Positions 4,150 through 52,331 of a stretch of 64,000 nt of DNA are shown piece after piece; within the stretch, counting starts at the first letter, position 1; each line of letters opens with the position of its first letter. The position numbers and the translations under genes are program-made. This DNA comes from Spiroplasmataceae bacterium (GTDB lineage: Bacteria > Bacillota_I > Bacilli_A > Mycoplasmatales > JAYUTB01): the NCBI GenBank assembly GCA_043756005.1, contig JAYUTB010000008.1:2316-66315 (forward strand). Reading direction: 5' to 3'. The notes beneath the pieces were generated by a model, which did not search any database, was not told the origin of the DNA, and saw only the letters and a program-made list of their open reading frames with translations.

Positions 4150-4477
4150 AATTTAAAAACAATACTAAGTTGTTGTAATAAATAATTTAATCATCTATTT
4201 AAAAATCATCGGCTTCTTTTGAAATTAAACAATGAAACACGCTTTTACAAATGTTTTCATCACATTTGCGACGCCGTTTTAATTCAACTGCATTCATATC
4301 ATCACCCTACCTTTACTTTATATATTACGTTGTTTTGATATGTTATATCAACAAACAACTAATATTATTTAAACTGTTTTTTATAAATTTCCTAAAAATT
4401 TATAAAAAACATCATCATCAGGAAAGTAAAGTGGTGAACAACCTCAATAAGCCACATTTTGTATTTTTAAATTTAAC

Positions 4478-4826
4478 TTTAAAAACGTTGATTATTTATC
4501 TATTAGTATAAATACTAATCCGTATCTTAGTTCAGTTACTAAGAAACGACTCCTCTACCATAAAATTGTTTGAGTTGCTCGCTTGTGGGGTTTACCGCGT
4601 TTCACTTTTTAAATTTCTCTAAAAAATCGTCACTGTGGCACCTTAAAAATCAATCAACCATGGTTAATAAAAACTTTAGGTTAATCAATTTGCCGTTAAG
4701 AGGTGGGTGACCTCCTACTTAAAGTTATTGATTCCTTTAACACAATCATTATAATCATCGCAGATTATACGCGAGGGTGGACTTTCCTCTAATTTTTTTT
4801 AAAAAATCAGCAATCAACTTTCTGGC
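4478..4826 (-). ncRNA. rnpB: RNase P RNA (ends approximate)
   Basis: The reverse strand carries the universal AGAGGAAAGTCC box (comp. 4779-4790) preceded by a P3-like hairpin, plus GTGCCACAGTGACG and AAGATACGG segments. GTTGATT (comp. 4812-4818) can pair with AATCAAC (comp. 4487-4493) as a closing helix. Confidence 0.85.
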
Positions 4827-4862: not shown

Positions 4863-5651
4863 TTAACAAGCAAATGTTAATAATTTTTGTTTAGTCCTAA
4901 TATAATACAGCAAGATCGAAGTTGCTGCCGCAACATTAAGTGATTGTGTAATACCTAACATGGGAATATGTAAATGAATATCAAGATCAGGTAATAAATT
5001 AGGTGTAATCCCTTTGCCTTCATTACCAACAATTAATACAAGTGGTAATTGATAATCAATCACCTTTTGATAGATTGCATCAATCAGTTGCGAAGCTAAT
5101 GTCGCCCCAACGATTCAATATCCAGCGGCTTTTAATAACTTAATTGTTACTTTTAAATTCACCACTTGACAAATATTTATAAAGTTAACAGCACCAGCTG
5201 ATGTTTTAAAAACTGTAGCATTTACTGGTGATTGACGATGCTGTAACATAATCACCCCATCCACATTCATAATTTCACTAGTTCTAATAATGGCGCCTAA
5301 GTTACCCGGATCTTGAATCTGATCCACCATTAATAATAATGGATGGGTTTGGTGTTTGGAAAAATCAATTAAGGCGGGTAAGTCAAGATAAGTAAATGGT
5401 TTGATGTCAATCACAATCCCTTGATGTTTATCAGTCTTAACCAGCGTAGTTAACTCATCTTTTGTTAAAACAACTACCTTAAGCTGATGGCTTTGACAAA
5501 GCGCTACAATGTGATCATTATGATAATTGCCTTCTGATAAAAATAACTGATTAATTTTATGGGGTGTTTTTGCAACAACTTGCAAAAACACCTGTCGTCC
5601 AAAAATATATTGATTTGGTAAAGTTTGCTGAATATTTAATATTTTCATCAT
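4863..5651 (-). CDS. rlmB: SpoU/TrmH-family RNA 2'-O-methyltransferase (RlmB-like)
   Basis: Track ORFs 4863-5063 and 5115-5651 are one frame joined by TGA. SpoU motifs DQIQDPGNLGAIIRT and LIVGNEGKGI are present. Confidence 0.85.
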
Positions 5652-18057: not shown

Positions 18058-19131
18058 ATGATTTATAATAAAAAAACATTCTTATTAAGAAAATCTGCAT
18101 TATTGTTTGTTTTAATGCCGGTAGTAGCGATTATTACTACAGCTATTGATGAAAAAATAGATGGAACATTGATTAAAGATATAAAAGAAGAAGAAATGAA
18201 GAAATGAACAAATGCAAAAATTAAAGCATTTACGTCTGAACAGATTCGATGATTAACACCGGAACAAGTTGGATGATTGAAGAAAAAACAATTTTCAAAT
18301 TTAATAGCAAAAAAAACATTTACTGATAATGAAGTTAAAGATTTATCGCCATTTGAAATATTTATTTTATCTAAAACACAAATTGGATGATTTAAGGAAG
18401 CACAAATTGGATGATTTACGAAAGAACAAGTTGGATGATTAACAAAAAAACACTTTTCAACGTTTAATAAAAAAGAATTTAAAACTTTGTCGCCTTTTGA
18501 AATATCTATTTTATCTGAAGAACAAATTGGAGGATTTACAAAAGAACAAATTAGAGAATTGACTAAAGAACAAATTGGATGATTAACACCGGAACAAGTT
18601 AAATGATTGAAGAACAAACAATTTTCAAATTTAATAGAAAAAAAACCATTTACTAATAATGAAGTTAAAGATTTATCGCCATTTGAAATATTTATTTTAT
18701 CTAAAACACAAATTGAATGGTTTAAGGAAAAACAAATTGAATGGTTTAAAAAAGATCAAATTGGATGATTAACGTCTGAACAGATTTGATGATTAACGCC
18801 GGAACAAGTTGGATGATTGAAGAAAAAACAATTTCCAAATTTAATTGAAAACACGTCATTTAATATTAAAAATTTATCACTGTTTGAAATATTTATTTTA
18901 TCTGAAGAACAAATTGGAGGATTTACTGATGTACAAGTTAAATGATTAACATCTGAACAATTAAAAATGTTTAATTTTAAATTAAATCATAACAGTAAAT
19001 GAGATCAAACAACATGAATTGTTATGTATACATTATTATCATTATCTGCAGCGACTATTGCTGGAATTATAATCTTAATGAAATGAGAAAAAATCAAAGC
19101 AAGTTGTACAAAAAGCAAACTAAGTGATTAA
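18058..19131 (+). CDS. repeat-rich membrane-anchored surface protein (xEQ[IV]xW[LF]T octad repeats)
   Basis: AAGGAAAAA lies upstream of ATG 18058. The product has an N-terminal TM/signal helix, about 20 short repeats arranged in 3 larger super-repeats, and a C-terminal TM helix. The frame is open only with TGA=Trp (at least 15 in-frame TGA). Confidence 0.8.
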
Positions 19132-23297: not shown

Positions 23298-23390
23298 TGG
23301 TGGAGTAAGGGGGATTTGAACCCACGCGTCATTTGCACAACCTACCTCATTAGCAGCGAGGCCTCTTCAACCGAACTTGAGTATTACTCC
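23298..23390 (-). tRNA. tRNA-Ser (anticodon GCU)
   Basis: The reverse strand GGAGTAATACTCAAG...CCTCG-CTGCTAA-TGAGG...GGGTTCAAATCCCCCTTACTCCACCA gives a cloverleaf with a long variable arm, anticodon loop CU-GCU-AA and an encoded CCA. Confidence 0.92.
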
Positions 23391-23697: not shown

Positions 23698-25343
23698 ATG
23701 TTTATGAACAAATTACTTAAATTATTCCCGATTGCAATAATTGCGCCTATGTTGGCGTTGACTTTTACTTCAGCAGTTGTTACACCTAAAGCTGAGGGTC
23801 ATTTTAAATATATTAACAACTCCATTACATTTAATGGTAAAACTTATTCAACCGATAATTTCAACTCACACAATCAAAGAATTTTAAAAATCAGTAGTGT
23901 GGAAATTATTATTGATAAACCGACAAAAGATTTTGTTTTTTACACAATTAATGGTGTTGATTATTTATATGTTGAAAAACAAAACACACTAATTAATTTA
24001 TCAACCAGTACAAAAGATTCTTACGTAATATATGGTGGAAAACTAAAAGTTTTTAATATCTTGGGGGGGTAGATTATATATTATATTGATATGGATCGCA
24101 CTGAATTTTTTCAACCATCGATCACCTAAAATATTGATACCCTACTGATGAAGTAAATTCTGTTGAAATTCTTGATGGCACTCACATTCAATTGAAATTG
24201 AATAATTCAAAATATGTTTGTTTAAATTTAAACTTACACAATAAAGTTATATCAAGTGATAATTCATTTTGAAAAGTATTTATTGATAATGAAACTGTAT
24301 TTTTAGGATATATATTTTATAATGCTGATTTAAATGAGCATCCAATTTTTAAAACTCCAATATATATGTCTGTATGAGAATACTCAAATATATACATTAA
24401 AAAAGACTTATCTGGGGGCTTGTTTGATTTCACAACAAGACTTACTTCAAAATCTATACAAAAATGCTCGTCTTATAAACCAATAACAATTGACGGCATT
24501 AAATTATTCATGGTAACTGTTGATAATAAACAAGAATTTTATGATGTTGATTTAAATAAAAAAGATGAATACAGTATTAAAATTCTTCACAATAACAATT
24601 ACATTGAACGAACTGTTGCTGATGTTAAAACGTTATTCAAGTTTGATGATGGCGCAAAAATTACATCAATCCTAGATTACAAAAAACTTGAAGAACGAAC
24701 CGTTGATACCGTTAAATTATTAATGGTAACTGATGCAAGTGATGGTGTAAAATTTTATAAGGATAGCGATCAAGCTTTAAATGGTAACTACACAACAATC
24801 AAACCGCAAGACACAAAGTACATTAAACGAACCGTTGATGGTGTGAAAACTTTATTCAAACTTGATGGCACATCAATTACAGATTACAAAGAACTTGAAC
24901 CACGAACGATTGATACCGTTAAATTATTGATGATAACTGATGCAAGTGACAATGTAGCATTTTATAACGATAACGATCAAGTTTTAAATAAAAACTACAA
25001 GTCAAGCACTCTGCATAACACAACTTACATTGAACAAACCGTTGGTGATGTTAAAACGTTATTCAAATTTGATGATGGCGCAAAAATTACAACAATCTCA
25101 AATTACGAAAGCATTAAACCAATAAAAAGCTTATTTAAAAAGAAATACTTAGAAGTAACTAACATTGAAAAAACAGTTGATTGATATAGTAGTATTAGTG
25201 AAGGCAAAAAAGATGATTTTAAAAAAACCTCTGGTATTATAAAATATCAGACTCCAATTGTAATTGGAGCTTCGGTTGGTTCAGTAAGTGTTGGTGCTTT
25301 AATTACTGCATTAATTTTAATTATTAAAAAACGTAAAAAATAA
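23698..25343 (+). CDS. variable surface protein, split by a frameshift at a G7 tract (apparent OFF state)
   Basis: The signal-peptide ORF 23698-24072 stops just after G7. The frame starting at 24069 is open (TGA=Trp) to TAA 25341-25343 and ends in a TM helix plus KKRKK. One extra G fuses the two parts (about 548 aa). Confidence 0.75.
24063..24069 (+). repeat. poly-G (G7) homopolymer at the frameshift point
   Basis: The sequence CTTGGGGGGGTAG can be read directly. Confidence 0.95.
24601..25110 (+). repeat. coding tandem repeats of about 205-220 nt (YIExTVxDVKTLFKxDG...TVDTVKLLM[VI]TDASD)
   Basis: About 2.4 units are visible in both protein and DNA (24601, 24823 and 25027 all begin TACATT[GA]AAC[GA]AAC). 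Confidence 0.85.
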
Positions 25344-25629: not shown

Positions 25630-25661
25630 ATGTTTGCGTGATAAATTTATCACGCAAACAT
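25630..25661. other. 32-nt perfect palindrome (possible terminator or protein-binding site)
   Basis: ATGTTTGCGTGATAAATTTATCACGCAAACAT is self-complementary with no loop. It lies downstream of the 23698-25343 gene. Confidence 0.7.
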
Positions 25662-35935: not shown

Positions 35936-36178
35936 ATGAAAAAATTATTGAAATTTACAAACCTAAATAAAGTAGTTTTATTTAGTTTGGTGACAATTCC
36001 GGTAGCTGCTATTTTAATGACGGCAAATGCTTGTCAAGGACCAACAGGACCAGCAGGATCTAAAGGTGAAACAGGAGCAGTAGGACCTAAAGGTGAAACA
36101 GGAGCAGTAGGATCTAAAGGTGAAACAGGAGCAGTAGGACCTAAAGGTGAAACAGGAGCAGTAGGACCTAAAGCGTAA
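35936..36178 (+). CDS. small collagen-like (Gly-X-Y)n putative lipoprotein
   Basis: [33 protein letters not shown] (signal peptide ending in Cys) is followed by 15 uninterrupted G-X-Y triplets ([18 protein letters not shown]...). SD AAGGAAG lies upstream and a strong terminator follows. Confidence 0.75.
36065..36172 (+). repeat. 27-nt tandem repeat x4 (GETGAVG[PS]K)
   Basis: GGTGAAACAGGAGCAGTAGGA[CT]CTAAA starts at 36065, 36092, 36119 and 36146. Confidence 0.95.
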
Positions 36179-36660: not shown

Positions 36661-36899
36661 TTATTGTATAGAAGATATACATTGTTTTTCATTTTTCAAT
36701 CCTACAATATAAAGTCTTTCTCTGTTTTGAGGCATATTTGAATAATTAGTTGTATTTATAATTTTGAATTTGATGTATATCTTAAATCTATTAATTTGTT
36801 TAAAATAGTAGCAAACGTTTCTTCGTTTTTATGAGGTTTTAAATTTTTCACATTTTCTAAAAAATTTTGGTTGTAATTTTTGAACAATTTTAAATACAT
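36661..36899 (-). pseudogene. relic of a C5 cytosine DNA methyltransferase (motifs VI-VIII only, frameshifted)
   Basis: Reverse frames give ...NFLENVKNLKPHKNEETFATILNKLIDLRY then, after a frameshift, IKFKIINTTNYSNMPQNRERLYIVG. These are the ENV and PQxRxR motifs of Dcm-type enzymes. The N-terminal AdoMet/PCQ motifs are absent. Confidence 0.6.
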
Positions 36900-42241: not shown

Positions 42242-43243
42242 TTATTGATCAACATCATTAATTGATGGAAATTTAATCATTTTTAAAAAGGTAATCAATG
42301 CATCTAAATCAATAAAATTAAGACTATATTTATTTTTATTTTTAGTTACTCACAATCCGTCTGGATCAGCTTCTCCTAAAAAATCACTAAATAATTGCAG
42401 ATGATGATTAAGTCGATCTAACTTTCGTTGTTCTAGTTTTTGTTCACTTTCTTTTAAAATTTGTTTGACGGATACATTAGCTGATTTAATTAATTGTTTG
42501 GTTTGTATGATATCTAATTGCGTCAGTGATAATTTATTTAATAATTGATCTAAAAATAACTTGTTATCATGATAAGGTAAAATTAAGCGAGCACATTCAA
42601 TACTTAATTCTCCTTTAAAAATAATTTGTTGTAAGATAAATGGTAATTTTAAAAAATTAAACGATTCTTCAATATCATCACGGGGCAATCATCGCGCAAT
42701 ATCAGCTTCACTTATCCCAAATACATCTTGTAATTTTTGATAAAAGATACCAAGTTCTAAAATATTTAAACAATCAATTACAATTTGTTTTTGAATAATG
42801 TTTCAAACCGCACTGGTTTGTAGCTTTGCTGATTCACCAATTTTTAAAACTAAACACCGGATTGTTGCTTGATTAATGTTACGAATGATTTTATAATATT
42901 TAACACCAATTAATAATTCGTATTTGTGACCATCATCAAACACAATAATTGGATAATAATTATTGTTTTTAATCGAATTCATAAATAAATTATTCTCATT
43001 CAGATTGCTGGTTTTTTTTAATTGATGTGAAACTAAATTAATATGAGCAATTGGTAAATCTTTGATTAAATTTAATAAATAATTGGGTTGATCAGTAGTT
43101 AATGATGATTGATAGGGTGGGGTTGATGCATCAGGTCGAAGATGAGTCGTGTAATTCAAATAATCAAGTTGGTCTTGTAATTTTTGATTAAAAAGTGCAT
43201 CGATTGAATTAATAATGTTTTTTTGATTCTTTTTATTTGCCAT
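42242..43243 (-). CDS. parB: ParB/Spo0J-like partition protein (divergent)
   Basis: Track ORFs 42350-42688 and 42803-43243 share one frame. Its start overlaps the parA stop. Size and position fit ParB, but sequence similarity judged by eye is weak. Confidence 0.65.
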
Positions 43244-44024
43244 GGTTGATTTCTTTCGCTAAACTTAAATAAGCTACGGCGCCGGCAGCTTTTTTATCAT
43301 ATTGAAAAATATCTTGATAATTGGCTGAAGCGTCACTTAAAGCAATGTTACGAGGAATATATGCTTTAAAAACTTTAGTAGTAAAAAGTTTTTTGACTTC
43401 TAAGACAATTTTACTAGCGGTAATTGAACGATCAACCACCATCGTTAATAGTACCCCTAAAATATCTAATTGATTATTAACGGTATTTTTAATTGAAAAA
43501 AACAGATCAATTAATTGTGTTAATCCTTCTAATGAATAAAATTCAGTTTGTACCGGAATAATAATTTTATCCACTGATGCTAAAATAACTTTATTTAAAG
43601 ACACTAATGATGGTGAACAATCAATAAAAATATAATCATAGGCAACTTTTAGTAACGTTAATTGATATTTAAAATGGTCAATTGATCCATGAAAGTTATT
43701 AGCAGTAATTTGTTCCATATGAGCTAAGCGATTGGTAACGGGTATTAAATCAACATTAGTCGTGATATTTGGTATAACAGCTGTAAAAGGATCAATGTCA
43801 GCACATAATACATTATAAATCGAACAATCAATGGTATTTTTTTGAACTCCAAAACCAGTTGTACAATTACCTTGCGGATCCATATCAATTAATAATACTT
43901 TTTGTTTTAAAATGCCTAAGGCGGCTGATAAATTGACTGCCGTAGTTGTTTTACCAACCCCACCTTTTTGATTAATAACCGCAATAATTTTATTAATAAT
44001 AAAAATACCTAATCATCTATTCAT
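43233..44024 (-). CDS. parA: ParA/Soj-family ATPase
   Basis: Deviant Walker A NQKGGVGKTTTAVNL and the LLIDMDPQGN motif. ATG at 44024. Confidence 0.88.
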
Positions 44025-44059
44025 TAATTATTTTAACATAAAAAAATGTTTTATAATGA

Positions 44060-44088
44060 TTGACAAATTACACATGATAGTGTATCAT
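44060..44088 (+). promoter_or_regulatory. near-consensus sigma-70-type promoter
   Basis: TTGACA (44060-44065), a 17-nt spacer, then TATCAT (44083-88) preceded by TG. It lies 43 nt upstream of the Cys-rich ORF. Confidence 0.6.
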
Positions 44089-44130
44089 AGTATTGATCTT
44101 ATATAAATAAGATTAAGGAGTTATAAATAT

Positions 44131-44235
44131 ATGAATTGTTTGAGAAAAAAAAAATGTTGTGAAAAATGCTTGTGTAATTGTGATTGTACAATAAAAGAAG
44201 AATCATCAGATTGTACAAACGGTACTTGCGAATAA
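44131..44235 (+). CDS. 34-aa cysteine-rich peptide (9 Cys)
   Basis: AAGGAG (44115-44120) sits 10 nt before the ATG. The product is MNCLRKKKCCEKCLCNCDCTIKEESSDCTNGTCE*. The ORF is below the 60-aa cutoff of the track. It abuts the convergent purB stop. Confidence 0.5.
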   Translation: MNCLRKKKCCEKCLCNCDCTIKEESSDCTNGTCE

Positions 44236-45528
44236 TTATTTAAATATTTTTTGATAAAAATGATCAAGATTATTTAAAAAATATGCTTGATCAAACAACT
44301 CATTAAGTGTTGTTTGATCAAGCATATCGTTAATATGATGCTCTTCAAGCACTAATCGGTAATCTTGTTGTTGATCAATCGCTTGAAAAGAAGTAGTTTG
44401 AATAAAATCATAAATTTTTTCACGGGTTACGTTAGTTTTAGCTATTAAAGCTAATAAGATTCTTTGTGAAAAAAAACTTCGATGGGCACGAGCAATGTTT
44501 TTATTAATATTGGGTACATTAATCTGTAAACCATCAATGACATGGTTCATTCTGATTAACGCAAAATGAATTAAATGAAACGTATCTGGAAAAATAATCC
44601 GTTCATTAGCGGAATTAGAAATATCACGTTCATTTCATAATAAATTGTTTTCAAATGTTACGCTACAGTTGCTTCTAATTAAGCGAGCTAAACTACAAAT
44701 ATTTTCACAAAAAATCGGATTTTTTTTATGAGGTAATGAACTAGAACCGGTTTGCGTCGTTAAAAATGGTTCTTGGGCTTCATTAATTTCGCTGCGTTGT
44801 CATAATCTTATTTCAATCGCAATTTTTTCTAAACTAGTGGCTAAATTAGCTATTAATGATCAAAAAAATGCCAAACGATCCCGTGATATAATTTGATTAT
44901 TAACATTCGCCACTGATAAAGCAAGTTCATCAGCAACAAATTGTTCAATGACTGGTTGCACATGGATAAAATTACCTAACGTTCCCGCAATTTTAGCAAT
45001 TGTTACGTCAGGCATCGCCCACTGCAAACGACCAAGATGACGGTTAATTTCATCATATCAATAAGCAAATTTTAAGCCTAATGAAATTGGTTCTGCAAAA
45101 ATACCATGCGTACGACCCATGATTAATTGTCATTTATATTGATCCGCTTTACTTTTTAAGCTGGTTAATAAGTTATGCATTGCTTCAAAGACAACCATTA
45201 ATGATTGTTTAATTTGTAAACTATACGTGGTTTCAACAAGATCACCAGATGTTAATCCAAAATGAATTCATTTATGAGAAGGCAATTGATGCTGATTTAA
45301 CATTTTTAAAAAAGCAACCACATCATGTTGCGTGATTGTTTCTCAATGATTCATGATCGCTACATCAACGGTTGTTGATGTAGCGATCGCTTGATAATCT
45401 TGCTCACTGATTAAACCAAACTTAGTTCAGGCTTGACAAACTAATAGTTCAATTTTTAATCAAATCGCTAAAGTGGCTGATTCTGATCAAATCTTACCGA
45501 TCGCTGGGGTTTGATATCTTTTAATCAT
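44236..45528 (-). CDS. purB: adenylosuccinate lyase
   Basis: MIKRYQTPAIGKIWSE..., GSSSLPHKKNP (the fumarate-lyase signature SSxMPxKxN) and the C-terminal ORF 44236-44550, all in one frame with TGA=Trp. Confidence 0.88.
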
Positions 45529-45530
45529 CA

Positions 45531-46139
45531 TTAATTGTTAAGTTTAACAAATTCAGTTTGTAAGGCTGCTTTTAAATCACGGCGCAAAGATGTTGTATCA
45601 ATACCATGCAGTGTATCATGTTGTAATTGAGCTAATAAAGGTTGATATTTAACAAATAACGATTGACAATGAACTAATACTGTATTAGCTTGTGCAAGGT
45701 TTAAAAAATTACCTACTTCAACATGATTGCTATTAACTTGCAAATTTTTATAATTTTCAAAAAAATCTTTAATTTCTAATTTAGTATGATTTGATAAATC
45801 AGTAATATCGTTAAGCTGATCAAATCTCGGATCATTCGCTACCACACCAATTAATTTAGTATCACCTTCACCATTATCGATCATGTCTAGTGCGCCAACT
45901 ATCTTAACAGCCACATGACAACCTGGAAAAGTAGGATAAGTTGAAACAACAATAATATCTAATGGATCACCATCAAAATCTAACGTTTGCTGAACAAATC
46001 CATATTCACCTGGATAAAAATTAGCTCCATATAAAACACGATCTAAATGCATCTGACCAGTCATCGCATTAAATTCATACTTATTACTTGAAAACTTTGG
46101 TATTTCAATAACCACATCGATGATTAATTTATGAGACAT
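45531..46139 (-). CDS. ppa: inorganic pyrophosphatase (family I)
   Basis: VIEIPKFSSNKYEF, DGDPLD and the GEGDTKL segment are typical of family I enzymes. Confidence 0.92.
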   Translation of the reverse strand: MSHKLIIDVVIEIPKFSSNKYEFNAMTGQMHLDRVLYGANFYPGEYGFVQQTLDFDGDPLDIIVVSTYPTFPGCHVAVKIVGALDMIDNGEGDTKLIGVVANDPRFDQLNDITDLSNHTKLEIKDFFENYKNLQVNSNHVEVGNFLNLAQANTVLVHCQSLFVKYQPLLAQLQHDTLHGIDTTSLRRDLKAALQTEFVKLNN

Positions 46140-46365: not shown

Positions 46366-46391
46366 TAGCTGTTATCAATTGATAACAGCTA
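46366..46391. terminator. 26-nt perfect palindrome downstream of the 46425 gene
   Basis: TAGCTGTTATCAATTGATAACAGCTA. Confidence 0.65.
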
Positions 46392-46424: not shown

Positions 46425-47382
46425 TTAGTTGTTGTTTTGAGCTGCTTTTAATTTTGCATCGGCTTCATCTAATGTTTGTTGAGCTGTTTTTAATTTTGCA
46501 TCAGCATCGTCTAATTTATTTTTACTTTCTAATCAACTTGATGAGTTGTTGAAATTTAAATTTGCAAAATCAATTGTTTGGTTAAATTTACTTAAAATAG
46601 GTTTGATATATGATGGAGAATATATATTATTCAATACTTGTAAAACATAAATTGATGATCAATTTTGATTTTTGATTGCATTAATTACATTAAATTCATT
46701 TTTTACAAACATAATATTAAAATTATTATCACTCGATTTTGGAATGAATAATGCAAGTAATTCTTTTAGTGCTGTTGTTTTTGTTTTTTCATCGGTTGCG
46801 TTAATTCATTTATCTAATAATGTTTTTTTAGCAGTATCTGTTGCAGGCATTAATGCTGTAAGTAATGTTTTTAGTGCGTTTATTTTTTCTGTTTCATCGG
46901 TTGCGTTAATTCATTTATCTAATAATGCTTTGTGATCTTTTGCTAATGCTTTAAGTAATTGTAGTAAAGAATTTTCGGTTGTTGCGATATTTGATGCTGG
47001 ATTTATAAATAATTGAAAATATGTTCTGCTTTTATCTCCACTTTTTGATAAAATTTTATTTAAATTTGTTGTTAAATTAGATTGTTCGGTTTGTAAATAA
47101 AATTTATAATTAAATATTGATTTAAGTAAATCTAAATCTAAAATTTTAGAATTTAAGAAATTTGAATTTATAATATTAAAATTTTGTTGAGCATGTTGTT
47201 GGTTTGTTTTTGCATGTTGTTGGTTTGTTTTTGCATGTTGTTGGTTTTTTATTGCATCATCTAATTCTTTATCAACACCTCAACAATTTTTTGCTGATGT
47301 TGAAATAACAACTGCCGGTATTGTTATCAAACTAAATAAAACAACTTTATTTAAGTTTGTAAATTTCAATAATTTTTTCATA
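46425..47382 (-). pseudogene. putative surface lipoprotein, frame broken inside the signal peptide at a T5 run
   Basis: ATG 47382 gives [16 protein letters not shown]. After removing one T at comp. 47338-47342 the frame reads LFSLITIPAVVISTSAKNC... and stays open to TAA 46425. It contains NQQHAKT x3 and LLDKWINATDE x2 repeats. Confidence 0.7.
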
Positions 47383-52255: not shown

Positions 52256-52331
52256 TGGTACCCACGATAAGACTTGAACTTATGGCCACATACTTAGAAG
52301 GCATGTGCTCTATCCACTGAGCTACGTGGGC
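52256..52331 (-). tRNA. tRNA-Arg (anticodon UCU)
   Basis: The reverse strand GCCCACGTAGCTCAGTGGATAGAGCACATGCCTTCTAAGTATGTGGCCATAAGTTCAAGTCTTATCGTGGGTACCA gives a clean cloverleaf with anticodon loop CU-UCU-AA. Confidence 0.92.

Follow-up and report, generated by a model that had tools for sequence, protein, structure and literature searches.

A small open reading frame of 34 codons and a TAA stop (MNCLRKKKCCEKCLCNCDCTIKEESSDCTNGTCE; 44131..44235, plus strand, TAA at 44233-44235) lies between purB and parA and encodes a peptide containing nine cysteines. The initiation signal of this ORF and the usage of its non-cysteine codons are like those of the genome's genes, and it is probably a translated gene. 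The best explanation for the locus as a whole, which is put forward tentatively, is a lineage-specific gene for a metallothionein-like peptide, divergent from parA. A metal-thiolate function of the peptide, considered separately, is a reasonable possibility that falls short of an even prospect.

In this explanation, plus-strand transcription would begin in the parA-proximal control region and proceed divergently from parA. Translation would start by way of a strong Shine-Dalgarno sequence, unusual where most genes are without one, and the product would be a soluble cytoplasmic peptide of 3.8 kDa. Its nine thiols would most likely fold round metal ions to give a thiolate cluster like a single metallothionein domain, and the peptide would thereby buffer or sequester Zn(II) or Cu(I). 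The transcript would probably end at or before a strong hairpin in the 3' end of purB, and a run of ten adenines in codons 5-8 would make the output sensitive to slippage.

A first-pass annotation of this DNA had described TTGACA and TATCAT hexamers 17 nt apart, AAGGAG placed 10 nt before an ATG, and a 34-residue ORF with nine cysteines between parA and purB, and all of these elements are present. Its proposal of an unannotated small gene is upheld in part. The Shine-Dalgarno sequence, the non-cysteine codon usage, the frame specificity of the cysteine codons and the free gap all speak for such a gene, whereas the arguments drawn from the promoter and from the cost of cysteine do not stand.

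The purB-parA gap and its surroundings

The source genome has a G+C content of 27% and reads TGA as tryptophan (translation table 4). Under this table fragmented ORFs join into full-length genes, and both purB and parA are intact. The window, meaning the whole 64-kb stretch of DNA that was analyzed, contains the gene string ppa-purB-(gap)-parA-parB-like-rpsF-ssb-rpsR-gdpP-rplI-dnaB, all of it on the minus strand. The purB gene (44236..45531, minus strand) encodes an adenylosuccinate lyase of 431 amino acids with 49% identity, at 100% coverage, to Spiroplasma PurB. The parA gene (43233..44024, minus strand) encodes a soj-type ATPase of 263 amino acids with matches to the Pfam families ParA, CbiA and AAA_31. 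The gap between these two genes, both on the minus strand, measures 211 nt and is empty apart from the small ORF. Being on the plus strand, the ORF diverges from parA, a distance of 106 bp separating the two start codons, and converges on purB. The purB stop codon (44236-44238, minus strand) abuts that of the ORF directly with a gap of 0 nt, which corrects the earlier statement that the ORF ends one base before it.

On the other side of the gap, a putative extended -10 box of parA (TGTTAAAAT, 44030..44038, minus strand) can be read from the sequence 5 nt upstream of the parA ATG. Such proximity would imply a leaderless parA mRNA. The parB-like gene (42242-43243, minus strand) encodes a protein of 333 amino acids with a faint HTH_ParB signal only, and no homologue but the protein itself was found among 5.8 billion proteins. 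Canonical parS is absent from the window. No metal-responsive regulator or metal transporter adjoining the small ORF was identified. At the far end of the gene string, by dnaB, a called gene of 47 amino acids (window position about 36756-36899) gives a weak match to the Pfam family of C5 DNA methylases and is probably a methyltransferase remnant.

Initiation signals and codon statistics

The Shine-Dalgarno sequence of the small ORF is AAGGAG (44115..44120, plus strand), 10 nt upstream of the ATG at 44131. This hexamer occurs four times in 128 kb (both strands), and only the copy at 44115 falls outside a gene. Among 371 ORFs of 28-60 codons, the small ORF is the sole case with a Shine-Dalgarno match of at least 5 nt at positions -4 to -18. 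The real genes that are led by such a sequence (at 18058, 35936, 46425 and 54992) use AAGGA-N8-11-ATG, while rpsP at the edge of the window has a spacing of N6. The signal of the small ORF thus has the same geometry as in the real Shine-Dalgarno-led genes, and the match is longer. If every ORF of 15 codons or more that starts with ATG and carries a Shine-Dalgarno sequence of at least 5 nt is considered, about half are known genes. The spurious members of this set are confined to the interior or the antisense strand of genes, but the small ORF has a free gap to itself.

The majority of genes in the window are without a Shine-Dalgarno sequence (e.g. those at 4863, 16239, 27585, 43233 and 60434). 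In 18 of 49 genes a -10-like hexamer ends no more than 12 nt before the start codon, suggesting that leaderless or very short-leader mRNAs are widespread in this genome. The few genes that do bear the signal include the members, with AAGGA-N10-ATG, of a family of paralogues that have their N-terminus in common and are putatively secreted or exposed at the surface. Representatives of this family occur at 35936-36178 (plus strand) and 46425-47381 (minus strand), and also at 23698, 26518 and 48357.

A somewhat unlikely alternative is that the ORF is untranslated, that the 211 nt of the gap serve in the regulation of parA or of the purB-parA junction, and that AAGGAG is coincidental. The uniqueness and correct spacing of the Shine-Dalgarno sequence argue against such a coincidence. 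The promoter-like sequence is more easily accommodated by this alternative. TTGACA (44060-44065) and TATCAT (44083-44088), separated by 17 nt, form an 11/12 match (44060..44088, plus strand) with a predicted transcription start for the small ORF near 44095. There are 12 matches of this quality in the window against 8.9 ± 2.6 in shuffled sequence, so chance would account for such an element in an AT-rich genome. It fits expression of the ORF but is no evidence by itself. The promoter and Shine-Dalgarno sequence had together been called the best in the window; the Shine-Dalgarno sequence does exceed chance, and the promoter is one of 12 equals.

Promoters in the Mollicutes depend mainly on the -10 box. 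A perfect TATAAT hexamer (44052..44057, plus strand), as read from the sequence, is an equally plausible -10 box toward the small ORF, alongside TATCAT. In the computed fold, a weak stem-loop with 8 bp (GAUCUUAU-AUAA-AUAAGAUU, 44095..44114, plus strand) immediately precedes the Shine-Dalgarno sequence, at what would be the 5' end of the transcript, and is possibly a 5' stabilizer. The succession of promoter-like sites, stem-loop, Shine-Dalgarno sequence, ORF and a very stable hairpin further on also speaks for a gene.

The small ORF has the highest cysteine fraction among the 839 ORFs of at least 20 amino acids in the window, and the next most cysteine-rich of these are all spurious. TGT and TGC make up 0.9% of the codons in the ~50 genes of the window versus 3.06% in the five non-coding frames, i.e. 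cysteine codons are 3.4 times commoner in non-coding frames than in genes. There are four places in the window where at least nine cysteine codons fall within 34 codons of some frame. High cysteine content alone therefore marks non-coding frames in this genome, and the earlier argument that cysteine codons are 'expensive' in AT-rich DNA is overturned by the same figures. These observations favor untranslated DNA, in which case the cysteine codons would be a by-product of TG-rich motifs (ATTGT and TTGTACAA repeats, and A10/T10). However, nine of the ten TGY triplets within the ORF are in a single frame, and that frame is open and begins with ATG. In addition, when 44025..44300 was shuffled 20,000 times with dinucleotides preserved, no ORF that reached 30 codons contained nine or more cysteines, and the frequency with seven or more is 6e-4. 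Both results count against the untranslated reading and indicate that the clustering of cysteines exceeds chance.

The remaining codons can be scored separately. The 25 non-cysteine codons of the small ORF score +0.43 log2-odds per codon, compared to 0.38 ± 0.18 for segments of real genes, and this score is in the top 1.1% of spurious ORFs. Such gene-like usage counts against untranslated DNA. With the cysteine codons counted, the score drops to the median for spurious ORFs, and 99.8% of real-gene segments score higher, so that the codon score overall is unremarkable, as untranslated DNA would have it. In weighing the case for a gene, the Shine-Dalgarno sequence and the non-cysteine codon usage are strongly positive, the cysteine content is neutral, the free gap speaks slightly in its favor, and the missing homologues and the A10 run speak slightly against it.

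Repeats within the ORF and a hairpin in purB

The A10 tract spans codons 5-8 of the ORF (AGA AAA AAA AAA; 44145..44154, plus strand) and corresponds to T10 ~125 nt upstream of parA. It is the sole homopolymer of at least 10 nt in the 64-kb window, in which there are 11 runs of 9. Removal of one A results in a product of 20 amino acids, and addition of one A in a product of 15. The length of the tract is the same in three independent read-set assemblies. This feature could reflect either weak coding constraint or a slippage or phase-variation switch. Such a run is not to be expected in a gene under constraint, and the tract counts against the small ORF as a gene; the location of the longest homopolymer of the window inside the ORF is correspondingly a point in favor of untranslated DNA.

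The second half of the ORF contains two exact copies of GATTGTACAA (44182-44191 and 44209-44218, plus strand), each of which supplies Asp-Cys-Thr codons and each of which includes the palindrome TTGTACAA. Six copies of this palindrome occur in the window, and three of them (43859-43866, 44184-44191 and 44211-44218) are grouped on either side of the parA start in a stretch of 360 bp, with positions of about -160, -187 and +158 relative to it (P ~0.002 for the cluster). The extended consensus is ATTGTACAAT. The divergent ParB-like protein may use these copies as operator or partition sites. Their clustering near parA indicates that part of the ORF may be constrained as DNA, besides or instead of as codons, and the presence of two copies within the ORF is an argument for untranslated regulatory DNA. 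However, the palindromes account for only two of the nine cysteine codons, canonical parS is lacking, and no known regulator binds such sites. The sequence TTGATCAA was also considered as a motif specific to this locus and was rejected. It occurs in 20 copies against 4.2 expected, but these are spread across the window, and the excess probably derives from the GAT-CAA codon pair.

A very stable hairpin (44281..44327), with a stem of ~20 bp, is situated within purB codons 402-417. It follows the ORF stop by ~45 nt, and its arms contain a perfect match of 17 nt (ATGCTTGATCAAACAAC / GTTGTTTGATCAAGCAT). The 126-nt segment that includes this hairpin folds at -35 kcal/mol, with z-scores of -6.5 and -6.7, and none of 200 shuffles folds as well. 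On the minus (purB-sense) strand the hairpin is followed by a U6 tract (44276-44281), 12-13 codons before the purB stop, and the combination resembles an intrinsic terminator on that strand. The hairpin is also an uncertain candidate for the 3' end or terminator of a small plus-strand transcript; this role is inferred only, since the canonical U6 is on the purB-sense strand and not on the plus strand. A translation-masked terminator, a processing site and the 3' end of a small antisense unit are all possible functions. The start of the ORF (44131-44143) is 92% complementary to the left arm of the hairpin (inverted repeat I15).

This complementarity is one reason to consider RNA as the product of the locus, a quite improbable alternative. 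A plus-strand transcript of ~230 nt, antisense to the 3' end of purB and to the purB-parA spacer, would modulate expression of purB or parAB by pairing or transcriptional interference, and either the ORF would be incidental or the transcript would act both as an RNA and as a message. The plus-strand unit is wholly antisense to the ppa-purB-parA-parB string, enters purB and reaches an exceptionally stable hairpin within its coding sequence, all of which fits such a transcript. However, an antisense RNA has no need for a strong Shine-Dalgarno sequence or for in-frame cysteine codons, and the 146 nt of leader plus ORF are not unusually structured (z = -0.58). Rfam gives generic hairpin noise only.

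The arrangement of the ORF and hairpin also recalls the attenuator leader peptides trpL and hisL, which are likewise short ORFs dense in one codon type and followed by a strong hairpin. The complementarity of the ORF start to one hairpin arm adds to this likeness. The differences are that the small ORF has no gene downstream on the same strand, where only antisense purB is found, and that the U-tract is on the opposite strand.

A known RNA family was rejected as an explanation of the gap, as the Rfam matches amount to sub-threshold miRNA-model hairpin noise. A pseudogene remnant was likewise set aside, the four minus-strand frames of the gap being without a Pfam match. Elsewhere in the window there are an RNase P RNA of class B (4445-4825, minus strand, 236 bits) and two tRNA genes (23301-23390 and 52259-52331, minus strand). 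There are also two perfect intergenic palindromes, one of 32 bp (ATGTTTGCGTGATAAATTTATCACGCAAACAT, 25630-25661) and one of 26 bp (TAGCTGTTATCAATTGATAACAGCTA, 46366-46391), which could be terminators or protein-binding sites.

The peptide, its possible relatives and its significance

The cysteines of the 34-residue peptide are at positions 3, 9, 10, 13, 15, 17, 19, 28 and 33, giving the spacing C-x5-CC-x2-C-x-C-x-C-x-C-x8-C-x4-C, with one CC, one CxxC and three consecutive CxC motifs. The peptide has a mass of 3.84 kDa, a pI of 6.1, a GRAVY value of -0.68 and 26% cysteine, and contains no phenylalanine, tryptophan, tyrosine or histidine. There is neither a signal peptide nor a hydrophobic segment. 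The absence of a signal peptide had already been noted on first pass and is confirmed by the N-terminus, MNCLRKKKCC, which is without a hydrophobic core, together with the GRAVY value. An AlphaFold2 model from the single sequence, with no metal, is of low confidence (pLDDT 64.8, pTM 0.28).

In composition the peptide corresponds to a metallothionein, being smaller than ~10 kDa with cysteine in the range of ~15-35%, few or no aromatic residues, and CC, CxC and CxxC motifs. The vertebrate metallothionein beta-domain has ~30 residues and nine cysteines, and fungal copper metallothioneins have ~25 residues. By comparison with these single-domain proteins as generally described, and not by alignment, the peptide is alike in its size, its 26% cysteine, its lack of aromatic residues and histidine, its CC, CxxC and CxC motifs, its hydrophilic character and its lack of a signal peptide. 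It differs in having no Pfam family match and in belonging to a Mollicutes-type bacterium. The Pfam Metallothio_* models, including the prokaryotic SmtA type, do not match the peptide at E-values up to 10, nor do any in NCBIfam. Since none of these HMMs matches, the peptide falls outside all sequence-defined metallothionein families. The metallothionein likeness proposed on first pass therefore holds for composition and fails for family membership.

Among characterized bacterial metallothioneins, SmtA/BmtA and the Pseudomonas proteins form Zn4Cys9His2 and Zn3Cys9His clusters, and MymT is the copper metallothionein of Mycobacterium tuberculosis (PMC7387436). SmtA and the PflQ2 metallothionein, like the present peptide, have nine cysteines, and all are small, cytoplasmic, cysteine-rich bacterial peptides (PMC7387436). 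However, proteins of the SmtA/BmtA type have roughly 50-80 amino acids, histidine ligands and a zinc-finger-like fold (PMC7387436), whereas the peptide has 34 residues, no histidine and no HMM match. The loci show a similar mixture of likeness and difference. The smtA gene is divergent from its neighbor with a shared operator-promoter, much as the small ORF is divergent from parA; the divergent neighbor here, however, is ParA and not a metal-sensing repressor. The papers that a literature search turned up on metallothioneins together with Mollicutes deal with host metallothioneins only, and none with one from the Mollicutes themselves.

It is also possible, although unlikely, that the peptide is real and serves another role. 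It could be a zinc-knuckle-type micro-protein that binds a partner (e.g. ParA/ParB or the ribosome), a thiol redox buffer, or the precursor of a RiPP, bacteriocin or toxin. All of the coding evidence cited above for the preferred explanation applies equally here, and the gene is divergent from parA. Some features of the peptide would also be compatible, namely that CC-x2-C and C-x4-C could make a single Cys4 zinc site, that a basic N-terminus (LRKKK) is combined with an acidic C-terminus, and that serine and threonine are mixed with cysteine in the C-terminal half. However, nine cysteines exceed what a single zinc site needs, and the low confidence of the AlphaFold model is a further point against this role.

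For a precursor peptide specifically, there is a likeness to those of SCIFF/ranthipeptide and lanthipeptide systems, which are also short, with cysteines in a C-terminal half containing serine or threonine and with a charged N-terminal part. The difference is that neither SCIFF nor any other family in NCBIfam or Pfam matches the peptide, and that no maturase or exporter flanks it. The neighbors are ppa, purB, parA, parB-like and rpsF, with no radical-SAM, lanthipeptide or export genes among them. To our knowledge, SCIFF- and lanthipeptide-type systems are not a feature of Mollicutes. The lack of a signal peptide or hydrophobic segment, in addition to the lack of maturation or export neighbors, likewise disfavors the toxin or bacteriocin that had been suggested earlier as an alternative to a metal-binding peptide. 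An association with ParA fares no better, as none of 80 other ParA loci has a comparable divergent, cysteine-rich mini-ORF, and a ParA-companion mini-ORF as a general rule was rejected on the same grounds.

Searches with the peptide itself were uniformly negative. A phmmer search of 1.84 billion representative proteins returned zero matches, the peptide itself included, and an exact look-up of its sequence found no record. The absence of the peptide from the protein search means that no gene caller has called the small ORF. Pfam, NCBIfam and PHROGs gave nothing, tblastn against plasmid and phage DNA gave nothing, and the best match in the PDB (E = 4.3) is an unrelated tick protein. A metagenome scan with the eight-cysteine codon pattern gave, among the matches listed, mostly (TGT)n microsatellites, and the three non-repeat matches among those listed had no non-cysteine residue in common with the peptide. 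That the small ORF has neither homologue nor annotation would be expected of untranslated DNA.

The flanking genes provide few relatives for comparison. ParA gives a 100% self-match followed by a next match of 49% identity, and a scan of genome collections with ParA gave non-Mollicutes ParA loci at 38-46% identity, with no relative among the matches listed. The relatives of PurB are Spiroplasma-like at 45-49% identity, and these have the synteny prs-pth-purA-purB-hpt with no parA neighbor. No syntenic relative of the purB-parA gap was found in the collections searched. No polymorphism was seen in Logan contigs assembled from three sequencing runs, which match the window at 100% identity for as much as 10.5 kb. 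With one NCBI contig and three Logan read-set assemblies as its only known sequences, the source organism seems to represent an isolated lineage of Mollicutes type.

A more far-reaching scenario, which is speculative and has a low likelihood, combines several of these features. The ORF would encode an unseen kind of bacterial metallothionein-like micro-protein (34 amino acids, nine cysteines, no histidine) from a wall-less Mollicutes-type lineage with a reduced genome, for which no such protein is known, the A10 tract would act as an on/off switch through slippage, and the mRNA would also be an antisense regulator of purB-parAB. Such a gene would tie metal or redox status to expression of the chromosome-partition gene.

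The significance of the locus depends on whether the small ORF is a gene. If it is not, the ORF is a useful cautionary example. High cysteine content alone is a mark of non-coding frames in AT-rich genomes, and whether such a candidate is a gene should accordingly be decided by its initiation signals and by how far its cysteine codons keep to one frame. Should the metallothionein-like gene prove real, no Mollicutes-type minimal genome would have yielded a metallothionein-like peptide before it, and its product would exemplify a functional micro-protein overlooked by every annotation pipeline, given its absence from 15 billion predicted proteins. The niche of the source organism is probably host-associated, and the retention in a reduced genome of a gene with its own strong ribosome-binding site would suggest a need for metal or thiol buffering in that niche.
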